Positions 32,791 through 40,214 of a DNA stretch of 64,000 nucleotides are shown in pieces. The stretch is from positions 1 through 64,000 of IMG/VR virus record IMGVR_UViG_3300037424_001643; one strand, 5' to 3'. Position 1 is the first letter of the stretch. The number at the start of each line of letters is the position of its first letter. The translations under genes were made by a program, and so were the position numbers. Below the pieces are notes generated by a model, which was given only the letters and a program-made list of their open reading frames with translations, was not told where the DNA came from and made no database searches. This stretch comes from a virus.

Positions 32791-32949
32791 TCAGTCAGAT
32801 TCCGGGGGCGTCAACGGGGCCGTTTCGGAGTCCGCCGGGTCATCGACCGGGGCGAGAAACCGCTGCGCGCCCTTGACGAGTTCCTCGATTGTGGTAGCGT
32901 CGAGACCGAAGTCTTCGACCGAGATTGGTTTGAAGTTCTTGTCGCTCAT
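32791..32949 (-). CDS. small acidic hypothetical protein (52 aa)
   Basis: MSDKNFKPISVEDFGLDATTIEELVKGAQRFLAPVDDPADSETAPLTPPESD. Its ATG forms an ATGA overlap with the stop of the 2422-aa gene. It is below the track cutoff. Confidence 0.45.
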   Translation of the reverse strand: MSDKNFKPISVEDFGLDATTIEELVKGAQRFLAPVDDPADSETAPLTPPESD

Positions 32950-38900: not shown

Positions 38901-40214
38901 GCCCTTCGCAATGTCGGAGGCAATTTCTCCTGCGACCGTAAGAGCCGTTGGGACAGCACGAGTGCCGGAAAGAATTTCGCCTGCGCCTTTGATGGCGGTG
39001 CCAGCTACTTCAATCCCCTTCGGAATCCCCTTTGCGAGCGCCGCGCGACCAATCGCAGAAATCACATCCCCACTCCCAAGAAGGCTCCCGAGTCCCACCC
39101 CTGTTCCGACCCCTTGGGTAAGTTTGCCTGCGACTTCGCCCACCTTCTCAATACCGCGTCCGACTACCTGAGTCGGCGCACCGACAATCTTTGAAGTCAG
39201 TTTGCCCGCTCGCGAGGCTGCGACTCGCGCGTTATTCAAGGTTTCGGCCAGTTTGGTAGCTTGCGCTGCGTCGAGAGTGCTCGCAATTGTGCGATTCACA
39301 ATCTTGCCGCCCACCTTTGAGACCGCGCCGACTGCCGCGCCAAAGGGAATGAAATTGATGGGGTCGGTCACAACAGACAGTTCCGACACGGCTTGTGGGT
39401 CAATCGTAATGCCCTCTTGGGCCAGTGTCGCCGCGTCATTTCCGAGAGCTTGCATGACTTGGCCGGAACCTTGGGTGACTGCTTCGGTCTGTTCTAGGCC
39501 CGCGACGTCATCCCGAAGACGATTCTTCCACTCTTCATCCGACTTCTCCGCTTTCGATTCGATTCCTGTAATCTCGGTGACGAGCGGAAGTTTGCCTGCC
39601 CCCTCGACGACGGCCCGACCTGAACGACGAATCAAATCCCCCGTTCCGGCTCCTGCTGTCTCAACAGAGGCGTCAACTTCCGCCATTTTGCCGCGGGCTT
39701 TGCGGAATTCCTCTTCCGCCCCTTTTGACCCTTCGACGGACGCGGCTCCTGCGGCGCGTGCCGCCACGGCAACCGGAGTCAAATCGAGAAATTGTCCGAC
39801 CGCCTTCTCAACGCCCGTGGCGAGTGCAGAGATTGCGCCGGGGGTGCCTTTGACCAAAGATTTGAGCTTCTGCCCAAGGGTGGTGCCCTTTGTTTCCTTG
39901 GACCGATAGATACGAGAAAGTTTGTCGAAGGCAGTCGAGTCGTCCAGCAGGGCTTCACGGTTGCGAGAACCGAACGCGACCGGGTTGAAATCCGTTGACT
40001 TGGAAAGCGCCTCCTCGTCGGAGGTCTTAAAGTCTTCGAGAGAGAATTCGGCGCTATACCCCTGAGCCGCATTGAAGGGGGGTGCCTCACCCGATGCGGG
40101 AGCCTCGGTAAAAGGCTGGCTGGGGTCGAATTCAGGGGGAGAAGACGCCGAGACTCCGGGGACTTCCGTAAACGGTTGACCGGGGTCGAAAGGAGGGGCG
40201 ATAGGCTGTGCCAT
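32946..40214 (-). CDS. giant multidomain (polyvalent-type) virion or ejected protein, 2422 aa
   Basis: One uninterrupted ORF with these features:
- A tandem PFDPxQPFTExP repeat at the N-terminus.
- A Gly/Ala-rich hydrophobic stretch.
- An HExxH motif at aa 602-606 (PHELYHAL, DNA 38397..38411).
- A VHDFFGHGKEGYQFGPRGEFNAW block at about aa 1327.
- A GNAT-like RGKGVGEAGYRELL at about aa 1621.

Its position corresponds to the internal-core genes of podoviruses. Confidence 0.7.
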   Translation of the reverse strand: MAQPIAPPFDPGQPFTEVPGVSASSPPEFDPSQPFTEAPASGEAPPFNAAQGYSAEFSLEDFKTSDEEALSKSTDFNPVAFGSRNREALLDDSTAFDKLSRIYRSKETKGTTLGQKLKSLVKGTPGAISALATGVEKAVGQFLDLTPVAVAARAAGAASVEGSKGAEEEFRKARGKMAEVDASVETAGAGTGDLIRRSGRAVVEGAGKLPLVTEITGIESKAEKSDEEWKNRLRDDVAGLEQTEAVTQGSGQVMQALGNDAATLAQEGITIDPQAVSELSVVTDPINFIPFGAAVGAVSKVGGKIVNRTIASTLDAAQATKLAETLNNARVAASRAGKLTSKIVGAPTQVVGRGIEKVGEVAGKLTQGVGTGVGLGSLLGSGDVISAIGRAALAKGIPKGIEVAGTAIKGAGEILSGTRAVPTALTVAGEIASDIAKGTAEGAVLAIPFALGARPDEEEMILGAAGVGGLARAAVTQAPKAVKAAGRAAQNKLAETIFRETELADAPSSDTYGTDPNLDTTHEATAAKLDARSQKLLNWTREAFRDSGIEVYALDDAAFTQKAGTGDAYGFSINVGERLDPKGNASPLVQIFLNGTTEALPHELYHALTEVDPKSAKQLSDAVMASWTPEQKAYFTELYNTLRNGGKPKEQWKHILDEKAIAEEAGAEVFSRLYLGQDVSNVAPNITQQAATFLSSILEKVGAPLGGVAKPKGPGVSTLGIRPGAEATKVGQRWLSNIAERLQTQGSLVSETRSKLLSGATPDDFTSNTGLPVTPRQPVGVGPQARRSDAAVEAAIAPLQPGARPNVTPPPATPEPITAPVSPTRAPTPKPPVVSVKPDTTARNVRVTRQQQNDFAAKRASETGVEAAKTASVTSEVKQHIDTISQALESGSGVVEIEHRGVTTDATASGRTARRAEQEAAYIAEGAANAPADIRTAYQKTFVPVRWENVKGKPQLLAMSLDKVIANVHRVVKDSFAKKVADRLPYEVVDGKLTDNGWGQVVEDLQAYTANQANGYRGDGNKLTRPTQDIGVSIPAENPSYNPVKLTTERMNFLNLVQGLNPPLTARVSKGTPGNIKGQLLAELQGRTPESPTVIRPEDIAKQEFKGTGRSIKETNPLRNELAAAGVPVRELIEVTERINSEDILTSQARPDIQFDAPVTDVIRAGFLPGKETMDALRSGLLPDPAPNQPTPSAEIRDLATNYAKSAGVDYRPSRNYSAVNPDVAKKLADFYESATSTPDDATVRASYQALADETLAQYKAITDAGYTIEPFSGEGEPYKSSAEAVSDIRDNKHLFFLKTDKAFGSGNEVAGNPMLADAGNGLVVNDVFRAVHDFFGHGKEGYQFGPRGEFNAWRAHSEMFTPAAQGALAAETLAQNSWVNFGKHLRDAEGNIPQKGQPGYVPVTERPFAEQKNLVIPENLIAEARQAASVEPKFLPDGKSIKEFGETLINASPSEFKPAMDALGGLTNGAWNLGWKLTDVKDVAVLKELSERASERSRALIQDGNFGEAMPMVMKGQFFREAYEAATGTASVKKAWESGRMPEGYQPPFPEVEGKALPKTDAGKALAKEGYDFDITGIPGRRDVVIRKGGVVVGEIMSASNRGRVTEADIVSATVERPSRGKGVGEAGYRELLTQLKADGVKKVGGMVVAPEPIAIRRKIFGAENTKIRGSEGEMSPEEALAKFALDKLNPTFYDVFNTIRPEQKFLPAGEVPAGVDAIDLAAIRTPSGKIYTGAWHGDALMKFVDAISQGLSDEKPPKGVKTLSEMLEGEIPDGYIEDGFTTKSGKFLNRTQALDHAEKIGQLKNEAKRGSLQEAGVLETDEFSRGRSFLPKDKTKRDSQNRPLNTDGLVDYEKFYKELTVAKAKKTAKDDAALAKRVAKGKYTMPKGVTSIKKMTGFILPDGEFVGLDTAFHEEFLAENADSFNEQYGTKFSGKPNVEERLDAINKGFVRIRALDNGRYNVELSSGTFSKAKSAILRQLENNLDGIDSVSITLLNNRGGVVDSVIERVNELEGPEKFTALEGAVNSLRARGPRFLPGSDTLPGLNLPTEERAIQMRLDRKVKNIREKFPESVPLQYRRDEEGNYIVKGDGKPAVVAIDYDLMSSPLAKEAAKGKKGPAREEAAVEELASTLKSYHDEMAKNPDVKAGSKWYSTARTRLKKLLGDDSKFFAELLGATSARTPVETNFRFAVDAYNQFKAGKFDDILTKYREGKAKWESGDIADFLKTWKGEDEPTRGQFLDWWVEKHDLVPTQSNGKKFGANSRPVLRVLDGSWAAEVQGPKTPNFAGNLSGSTFEATIDVWAMRTLHRLANEGKKDRWRIMPENETGVSDTDFFIGQKAFRKAADAIGIKPDALQAIIWFAEKDLWEKRGWTRGAGAEKSDFNSLLAVSERKGDEIRMKTPQEELAFDLSVDDIKPKKK

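Follow-up and report, generated by a model that had tools for sequence, protein, structure and literature searches.

A giant late protein of an uncultured phage combines a conserved N-terminal chassis with shuffled C-terminal modules and a recurrent F-x-P motif at their junctions

The window analysed here is a 64,000-nucleotide stretch of viral DNA (positions 1 to 64,000 of IMG/VR record IMGVR_UViG_3300037424_001643), and our subject is one of its genes, which encodes a protein of 2422 residues that we call the giant protein. A preliminary description, made by a model from the sequence alone, had given the limits and length of this open reading frame (ORF), and both are correct; it did not state the strand, which is minus. 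The ORF is uninterrupted, an identical protein (P0001) was recovered from a JGI record and from an independent Logan contig, and other samples yielded 8 full-length homologues (44-63% identity), most of them on contigs of 69-72 kb, so the gene is not an artefact. In the window, replication genes on the plus strand encode a helicase, two exonucleases, DNA polymerase A, a DUF5906 protein, a sigma-70-like protein and a RuvC-like resolvase; facing them is a convergent late arm on the minus strand, at whose inner end lies the giant gene. This arm carries TerL, collagen-like tail fibres, an S74-chaperone fibre, a GDSL esterase, a stand-alone GNAT acetyltransferase, a match to an "internal virion protein" family and, last, the giant gene; the same synteny surrounds the giant gene in 5 related loci. 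The gene had been said to close the structural operon, and it does stand at the distal end of the late arm, although two small ORFs on the same strand lie beyond it.

A constant chassis and a variable cargo

The organisation of the giant protein, which the preliminary description did not contain, is that of a constant N-terminal chassis followed by a variable C-terminal cargo (Table 1). Residues 1-1166 are collinear and conserved across the family, while the remainder consists of six independently folded modules that are shuffled among homologues. BLAST comparison with homologues breaks the protein at about residues 1170, 1430, 1560, 1700, 1830 and 2036, and the six modules occur in dozens of different presence/absence combinations among the 175 proteins that we collected; relatives exchange one module, the HDxxGH domain, for an S-adenosylmethionine (SAM) methyltransferase, or add an ART-PolyVal domain or a second GNAT. 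The AlphaFold2 (AF2) models reflect the same division. Model 2 (residues 1186-2385) has a mean predicted local distance difference test score (pLDDT) of 84.9 with confidence minima at the linkers, and its predicted template modelling score of only 0.40 despite this high pLDDT points to domains that are independent of one another. Model 1 (residues 1-1185) has a mean pLDDT of 49 and is confident only at a zincin-like domain (residues ~510-700) and at a central domain (residues ~860-1015 plus patches).

Table 1. Features of the giant gene in order along the protein, with their positions in the window
Feature	Residues	Position	Strand	Basis or remark
Whole gene, assigned to phage-type polyvalent proteins	1-2422	32946..40214	minus	ORF list and translation; 2422 residues plus stop codon, ATG start
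Two FDPxxPF proline-rich repeats	7-39	40098..40196	minus	positions confirmed
Gly/Ala-rich helical N-terminal region	~100-480	38775..39917	minus	composition and AF2
Zincin-like metallopeptidase domain (predicted)	~510-700	38115..38687	minus	conservation, AF2 topology, hhalign
HELYH	602-606	38397-38411	minus	sole HExxH of the giant protein
EAGAE (E664/E668)		38211-38225	minus	downstream helix 658-674
Pro-rich disordered linker	~775-860	37635..37892	minus	composition; pLDDT below 50 over residues 701-859
Central conserved α/β domain	870-1166	36717..37607	minus	family hallmark; ends ...APVTDxIRAG
Junction 1, F1167-L-P, chassis to cargo		36708..36716	minus	pLDDT below 50, end of model 1
HDxxGH domain	1170-1434	35913..36707	minus	phrog_3170; holds the previously unassigned block at 36132-36239
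Junction 2, F1435-L-P		35904..35912	minus	at BLAST module breakpoint about residue 1430
Small helical module	1438-1556	35547..35903	minus	five helices, pLDDT 82-95
Junction 3, A1557-L-P (FLP in several homologues)		35538..35546	minus	low-pLDDT linker 1553-1556
GNAT acetyltransferase module (predicted)	1560-1706	35097..35537	minus	Pfam and Foldseek; motif A RGKGVG within 35313-35354
Junction 4, F1707-L-P		35088..35096	minus	low-pLDDT linker 1704-1710
Small α/β module "AAIRxxxGxxxxGxWHG...DGFxTxxGxFLxR"	1710-1830	34725..35087	minus	pLDDT 80-90
Junction 5, F1831-L-P		34716..34724	minus	low-pLDDT linker 1809-1836
α/β module "ILPDGxFV...HExFL...GFVRIR"	1834-2036	34107..34715	minus	pLDDT 86-95; long Lys/Glu-rich helix precedes
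Junction 6, F2037-L-P		34098..34106	minus	low-pLDDT linker 2034-2050
All-α DUF7178 module	2040-2422 (Pfam core ~2140-2364)	32949..34097	minus	PF23802, phrog_3842

For the zincin-like domain of the chassis, the preliminary description had reported a zincin-type HExxH, and conservation bears it out: across 63 sequences whose median identity is 30%, H602 and H606 never vary (63/63 each), position 603 holds Glu 55 times and Asp 8 times, and a downstream helix holds E664 (62/63), A667 (63/63) and E668 (62/63). Lack of a third metal ligand had been named as a sign that the motif might be fortuitous; such a ligand does exist, in E664 or E668, so that this objection falls. AF2 predicts a helix, three strands, the HExxH helix and the Glu helix, mostly at pLDDT 54-83, and this is the same order of elements as in the zincin core described in PMC5512222. 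A profile of the domain matches the HExxH...ExxA[ED] regions of unrelated polyvalent proteins (the class described below) with 96.8% hhalign probability, and it is found in all 119 of the N-terminally complete family members, 118 of which have H[ED]xxH. Gluzincins, whether thermolysin-like or ImmA/IrrE-like, combine HExxH with a downstream Glu. In its AF2 model the giant protein resembles them in placing HExxH on a helix after a three-stranded sheet, with the invariant E-x-x-A-E helix about 60 residues downstream, and differs from them in having no sequence-profile membership in any catalogued peptidase family. We therefore call residues ~510-700 zincin-like and assign them to no named peptidase family.

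The central domain is the hallmark of the family. It is present in 154 of the 175 collected proteins, with a median identity of 41% among the 148 that are long enough to align, and its invariant residues include R914, K940, N967, D1004, N1011, Q1012, an RGDG stretch and N1116-P-x-R1119; pLDDT across residues 860-1015 is 74-87. It matches nothing in Pfam, PHROG or NCBIfam, and tblastn against 50,697 phage records returned no match, that is, none in a cultured phage.

Two copies of a tandem proline-rich repeat, PPFDPGQPFTEVP at residues 7-19 and PEFDPSQPFTEAP at residues 27-39, are present as had been described, and like the other motifs listed at that time (HELYH, the NDVFRAVHDFFGHG block and RGKGVGEAGYRELL) they stand in the translation at the residues given. 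The FDPxxPF repeat is limited to a subclade, however, occurring in two to three copies in 15 of the 78 relatives that have the N-terminal region. Among close relatives the repeats of residues 1-60 take two forms, FDPxxPF in the giant protein, P0002, P0003, P0005, P0008 and P0009, and (D/E)hxEVLP in P0004, P0006 and P0007, which suggests a repeated short linear motif for a putative binding partner. The Gly/Ala-rich stretch that follows is conserved in 77 of the 175 proteins; Gly plus Ala make up 33-38% per 100 residues across residues 300-500, and AF2 predicts long helices at low confidence (pLDDT 22-45). It had been called amphipathic or hydrophobic. The composition stands; the maximum Kyte-Doolittle value over 19 residues is 1.32, no segment is of transmembrane grade, and a check for N-terminal transmembrane helices found none.

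The first cargo module, the HDxxGH domain, matches phrog_3170 (E 1.7e-21) and has tblastn matches in 213 phage records. Some of these are modules of cyanophage and roseophage giant proteins, and others are solo proteins that cluster C mycobacteriophages encode in their head-gene region; a faint match to PF26092 (T4_Y16D) exists among precomputed annotations only, with none in the Pfam copy that we searched. The domain includes the NDVFRAVHDFFGHG... block at residues 1326-1361, which the preliminary description could not assign: the block belongs to a widespread phage domain (phrog_3170/T4_Y16D-like), and a literature search on Y16D returned unrelated papers only. Across 82 sequences, conservation reaches at least 90% at more than 20 polar positions, among them N1326, D1327, R1330, H1333, D1334, H1338, E1350, H1357, E1372, Q1376 and N1377. 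The domain is modelled at pLDDT about 90-98 and has no sequence match in the PDB. Such polar conservation is the pattern of an enzyme, and the domain is probably one, possibly metal-dependent.

The third module is a GNAT acetyltransferase, as had been proposed from its motif. Acetyltransf_1 scores 22.6 bits on the isolated segment and 18.6 bits on the whole protein (cut-off 20.7), and Foldseek against the PDB gives probability 1.00, at a target TM-score (template modelling score) of about 0.5, to RimI, Naa50, Ard1, PA4866, HP0935 and others. Motif A (R1621-G-K-G-V-G) lies in RGKGVGEAGYRELL at residues 1621-1634, and R1621, G1624, E1627 and Y1630 are at least 90% conserved. By its modelled fold the module is related to protein N-acetyltransferases. 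All the matches listed in the PDB search of model 2 were to GNATs, which leaves the other five modules without a PDB verdict.

Three of those modules, each with no family match, are the small helical module (76 of 175 proteins), the AAIR...FLxR module (54 of 175, duplicated in P0003 and multiplied in P0011) and the ILPDG...GFVRIR module (79 of 175), in which P1903, H1915, R1943, G1950-F-x-R1953 and E1965 are conserved. The C-terminal module matches PF23802 (DUF7178) with a score of 49.5 bits for the full-length protein and 56.6 bits for the segment (cut-off 27), is modelled at pLDDT 85-97, is present in 88 of 175 proteins and recurs in other polyvalent proteins; our literature search on DUF7178 found nothing. 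We considered whether DUF7178 is the LPD22 domain and rejected this, as LPD22 is N-terminal in P0018, P0021 and P0023, apart from their DUF7178-like region. A further shuffled module, "(Y/F)WL(S/N)xxGxxxxxxxxHxxW...GWVR", occurs in P0006 (residues ~1840-1940), P0008 (~1590-1700) and P0009 (~1300-1390); it is absent from the giant protein, and its pattern loosely resembles that of the ILPDG...GFVRIR module.

The F-x-P motif at module junctions

All six cargo boundaries of the giant protein carry the motif (K/R/G/S)-F-L-P, with A-L-P in place of F-L-P once. The motif occurs in 7 copies where 1.5±1.3 would be expected, and it falls at the module breakpoints that BLAST defines. The same enrichment extends across the family: 126 members together contain 483 F[LM]P against 66 expected, of which 471 come after the central domain (3.0 per 1000 residues) and 12 lie in the chassis (0.09 per 1000 residues). 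The median spacing is 163 residues, or about one tag per domain, and the residue preceding the Phe is G, K, Q or R.

The middle residue of the tag is not mixed at random. Usage of FLP and FMP in proteins with at least 4 tags is bimodal, with 24 almost purely FMP, 31 almost purely FLP and few mixed, where random mixing predicts about 63 mixed proteins. Lineages without F[LM]P use FQP, FKP, FSP/FNP, FAP/FTP or YLP instead, uniformly within each protein. F[LM]P is missing from those giant proteins of cultured phages whose sole common module is HDxxGH. This junction motif is a new observation, absent from the preliminary description and from the description of polyvalent proteins by Iyer et al. 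2017, whose text (PMC5512222) we searched and found to make no mention of a linker or cleavage motif; nor did we find a report of such a motif in the literature on polyvalent-protein cleavage.

Polyvalent-protein class and relatives

On the evidence of its sequence, the giant protein belongs to the phage-type class of polyvalent proteins that Iyer, Burroughs, Anand, de Souza and Aravind described in J Bacteriol in 2017 (PMC5512222). These proteins are placed among late genes, which is the neighbourhood that defines the phage type; their most frequent hub domain is a zincin-like metallopeptidase, and they also contain GNATs of the RimI type and numerous enzyme-like domains without an assigned function (PMC5512222). 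The giant protein joins disparate activities in one chain (a zincin signature, a GNAT fold and at least 5 further autonomous modules), in line with the polyvalent protein that the preliminary description had proposed. Its gene adjoins late and virion genes (TerL, fibres and the internal-virion-protein-family match), and it has both the zincin hub and domains shared with known members. Distant whole-protein matches are giant phage proteins of 2000-4000 residues with precomputed ART-PolyVal, LPD38, LPD22 and Kinase-PolyVal annotations, and the HDxxGH domain and DUF7178 recur in proteins that carry these four. A Foldseek search of BFVD with model 2 returned mostly unnamed phage proteins, the matches including ART-PolyVal, LPD and MuF fusions. 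The likeness to the class therefore covers a very large late product with unrelated catalytic domains, a zincin-like hub, RimI-type GNATs, many uncharacterised enzyme-like domains and extensive shuffling, with ART-PolyVal present in the protein's relatives. The giant protein differs in that its chassis matches no Pfam model, those for polyvalent proteins included, and in that no LPD domain was detected in it.

By similarity of residues 480-1166, the giant protein is also a new member of a large family whose phages are all uncultured. When 1.84 billion representatives were scanned in full with HMMER, 230 clusters at 50% identity matched this region, and most of the matches listed are proteins of 2000-3500 residues with the region at about residues 450-1200. 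A word-indexed homologue search had found nothing for residues 480-1166 and a single match for residues 1436-2036, and sequence and profile searches of the PDB with the giant protein gave nothing meaningful. The family is large and uncatalogued, but as a kind the giant protein is less uncharted than the preliminary description implied, its class having been described in 2017.

Several known proteins invite comparison. A precedent for delivery is gp47 of the E. coli Stx phage phi24B, a protein of 2811 residues that is abundant in virions by proteomics and invisible in cryo-electron microscopy (bioRxiv 10.64898/2026.04.10.717836). Like the giant protein it is a giant polyvalent protein with a metallopeptidase; its phage is short-tailed, and gp47 has been proposed to be an encapsidated ejection protein. 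In contrast, its LPD5, LPD1, LPD38 and MuF-C peptidase domains are absent from the giant protein, no sequence similarity between the two was detected, and packaging has been shown for gp47 and is only probable here. Another polyvalent protein, gp25 of phage PTXU04 (2198 residues), is fitness-essential (PMC11879866). Coliphage N4 offers a likeness in layout. Its virion RNA polymerase (vRNAP, gp50), which likewise ranks among the polyvalent proteins and has a zincin domain (PMC5512222), is the product of a giant late gene at the inner end of a late arm converging on a replication arm, and N4 and the phages considered here have genomes of about 70 kb (the giant-gene contigs P0001 and P0003-P0006 are 69-72 kb). 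There is no detectable sequence similarity to N4-like phages, however, and the phage in the window encodes a sigma-70-like factor instead. As the preliminary description had stated, family scans give no RNA polymerase or tape-measure signal: no RNA polymerase family was found in the giant protein by Pfam, PHROG and NCBIfam scans of the whole protein and its segments or by PDB sequence search, and the two-barrel RNA polymerase motif D-x-D-x-D is absent.

The HDxxGH domain links the giant protein to cultured-phage proteins, namely the "large polyvalent protein" of Planktothrix phage Pag-Yong1 (2772 residues), gp16 of Octadecabacter virus OANV1 (2986 residues), which its authors compare with Bbp10 of Bordetella phage BPP-1, and solo proteins such as gp102 of Mycobacterium phage Rizal. 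These share a domain of ~230-270 residues at 33-44% identity and are encoded among virion or head genes; the difference is that HDxxGH is the sole module they have in common with the giant protein. Database names such as "lysin", "crystallin motif" and "RelA/SpoT" on proteins sharing this domain are annotation carry-overs. OANV1 also has a stand-alone acetyltransferase adjoining its portal gene. We considered whether a 2986-residue protein in our collection, P0117, is OANV1 gp16 itself and rejected the identification, since tblastn finds the central domain nowhere in the phage collection.

Proposed role, alternatives and the surrounding genome

We lean, with moderate confidence, towards a reading in which the giant protein is a polyvalent multi-enzyme protein that is probably packaged and released with the DNA, its zincin cutting the cargo at the F-x-P tags. 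The protein would be packed into the capsid and would enter the host cell with the DNA, the chassis providing incorporation, exit from the virion and processing. We infer packaging and ejection from gene context and from precedents, for which the Dar proteins of phage P1 are reportedly a further example. The chassis zincin would cut at the tags, most simply N-terminal to the Phe; thermolysin-like gluzincins favour a bulky hydrophobic residue at P1', which makes a cut just before Phe the most economical assumption. Once separated, the modules could each go to a different host target, and we speculate that the middle residue of the tag co-evolves with the protease pocket, which would give rise to the L, M, Q, K, S or A/T dialects. 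The architecture, the zincin signature with its conservation, the GNAT fold, the shuffling of modules and the junction motif with its statistics are shown; proteolysis at F-x-P, like every substrate and target suggested here, we infer.

That the tags are a family-specific processing code, with cleavage sites for the chassis zincin acting on its own cargo, is a proposal that we hold tentatively, at slightly less than an even chance. A tag that lies in exposed linkers, occurs once per module, is missing from the chassis, is uniform within a protein and drifts between lineages fits a site that is read by a single co-evolving factor. The zincin, which is present in all of the complete family members, is the obvious candidate for that reader, and cutting by it would match the role predicted for the metallopeptidase of this class, which is to process polyvalent proteins into functional units (PMC5512222).

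Several points weigh against the proposal that the protein is delivered and then cut. Packaging, ejection, proteolysis and enzymatic activity are all predicted, and the neighbouring structural proteins are too divergent to reveal the virion type. The zincin domain matches no peptidase model in Pfam, PHROG or NCBIfam, a Pfam scan of the corresponding segments of 9 divergent relatives also gave no match, and Foldseek lends the fold no support, as a search with the whole of the low-confidence model 1 returned nothing better than E = 1. As for the tag itself, junction 3 is ALP and not FLP, about a quarter of family members have one F[LM]P or none, each of the alternative dialects rests on 3-5 copies, and the uniformity of the middle residue within a protein is partly the shared ancestry of clades. 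Finally, N4 vRNAP carries such a peptidase and yet is packaged unprocessed (PMC5512222), so a peptidase domain does not guarantee cleavage.

The N4 case leads to the alternative that survives best, although we consider it unlikely: a virion-delivered polyvalent protein that stays uncut and acts as one intact multi-enzyme chain, as N4 vRNAP does. The tags would then be linker or docking motifs, serving in threading through the portal or tail channel, packing in the capsid interior or binding of a host or phage factor, and the zincin would act on host envelope or defence proteins. N4 vRNAP, ArdC and TraC1 all carry this kind of peptidase and are transferred full-length (PMC5512222), the authors of the phi24B study propose that the gp47 peptidase attacks the cell wall (bioRxiv 10.64898/2026.04.10.717836), and exposed disordered linkers are where any short linear binding motif would lie. 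What speaks for cutting over docking is that the chassis also has linkers and yet lacks the tag (12 vs 471 copies), that spacing of one per module and a middle residue changing in concert fit a site read by a co-evolving catalytic pocket, and that we identified no known docking motif of F-x-P form.

It is less likely still that the giant protein is a late cytoplasmic polyprotein or effector that is never packaged and acts in the producing cell on virion proteins, host proteins or competing elements. Packaging is after all presumed, the N-terminal region has no match to a known ejection, internal-core or MuF family, and the stand-alone GNAT in the same operon suggests that acetylation takes place at a late stage anyway. 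Against this stand the place of the gene, surrounded by virion genes of the late arm as phage-type polyvalent proteins are by definition, the solo HDxxGH domains that sit among head genes, one BFVD match that is a head-morphogenesis (MuF) domain fusion, and the finding by proteomics of a comparable giant protein in phi24B virions.

A very improbable explanation is that the junctions are gene-fusion scars or working internal translation starts, and the giant ORF a train of fused small genes. It draws on the way late genes in this phage often begin, with stop-TTT-ATG-CCN, which read in frame gives (G/R/Q/K)-F-M-P, or F-L-P once ATG becomes CTG. Of the window's late genes, 7/18 start with Met-Pro (ATG CC[ACT], never CCG), several of them with TTT directly before the ATG; in the giant gene the junction Leu is CTG in 5/6 (21% gene-wide) and the junction Pro is never CCG (52% gene-wide); and a single mutation separates the codons of the residue preceding Phe (G, Q, R, K) from a stop codon. 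But when the window's gene is taken together with six further family genes, the junction Leu codons are CTG 9, CTC 9, TTG 9, CTT 8, TTA 7 and CTA 1, most of which cannot start translation, and the junction Pro is CCG in 17/47. Junction codons thus vary freely, so the constraint acts on the peptide and not on the DNA, and internal starts or fusion scars are rejected as the main explanation. In addition, the sequence upstream of the junctions is GC-rich, unlike real gene leaders, the dialects FKP, FQP and FSP cannot be start codons, and a neutral scar would not persist at 30% overall identity. Fusion may still be informative about how the junctions originated. Finally, a chiefly structural role (as a ruler of the tape-measure type, a central needle or a fibre) with incidental enzyme-like motifs is scarcely credible, since although its long Gly/Ala-rich helical N-terminus loosely recalls tape-measure proteins and its neighbours are fibres, no tail tube, sheath, tape-measure chaperone or tape-measure family match was found in it or in 30 neighbouring proteins, its C-terminal half is made up of six domains that are compact and globular, have invariant polar residues and include a genuine GNAT fold, and close relatives differ freely in the modules they contain, a variation incompatible with a ruler.

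Polyvalent proteins are believed to act before any other phage protein once a cell has been infected, but their biochemistry is almost entirely predicted. With its 230 clusters, invariant chassis and freely exchangeable cargo, this family is a clean test system, and the repeated F-x-P tag gives the autoprocessing prediction of 2017 defined sites and mutants, making it directly testable. If cutting at the tags proves true, polyvalent proteins would have in F-x-P their first defined cleavage motif, and a tag-flanked domain of any kind would become releasable cargo, which would explain how new modules are plugged in. The HDxxGH domain, DUF7178 and the two small α/β domains, all of them conserved, enzyme-like and modelled with confidence, are concrete candidates for novel activities against the host or its defences. 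Published work already covers the class together with its logic and its location in virions, and if none of our proposals holds, the giant protein is an ordinary, very divergent example of that class.

The rest of the locus adds several minor observations. Two small minus-strand ORFs lie 3' of the giant gene, one of 52 residues at 32791-32949, which overlaps the giant gene's stop codon by 4 nucleotides, and one of 199 residues at 32180-32779; comparable small ORFs stand behind the gene in all the related loci too. We considered whether these are detached giant-protein modules and rejected this, as no similarity was found between them and the modules of giant proteins. A plus-strand ORF of 328 residues at 31979-32965 overlaps both and is probably spurious. 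The structural proteins are extremely divergent, with no match to any cultured phage, and a 710-residue candidate portal (59533-61665) has no tblastn match among the 50,697 phage records. Late genes are packed as stop, 3-6 nucleotides, ATG (starts on the minus strand include 42005, 44897, 48544, 50746, 47271, 59206 and 61665), and the TTT-preceded starts have no obvious Shine-Dalgarno sequence, an unusual and uniform start context.

The other 7489 residues of the window's late proteins contain a single F[LM]P, in SEKGFLPTDV at residue 18 of the 424-residue GDSL esterase (52305-53579, minus); this GFLPT could be a second substrate, losing an 18-residue N-terminal peptide, or chance. The stand-alone GNAT, of 152 residues (43343-43801, minus), lies within the structural operon and is present in most related loci (L002, L007, L008), so that the phage has a free GNAT as well as the one built into the giant protein. 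The sigma-70-like factor at 28812-29495 (plus; Sigma70_r2/r4, phrog_351) is kept in related loci, and together with the lack of a phage RNA polymerase match it suggests that the phage redirects the host polymerase. Three consecutive and partly overlapping minus-strand ORFs at 48580-52088 match collagen-like tail fibres through Gly-X-Y-type repeats and are probably paralogous fibre genes.

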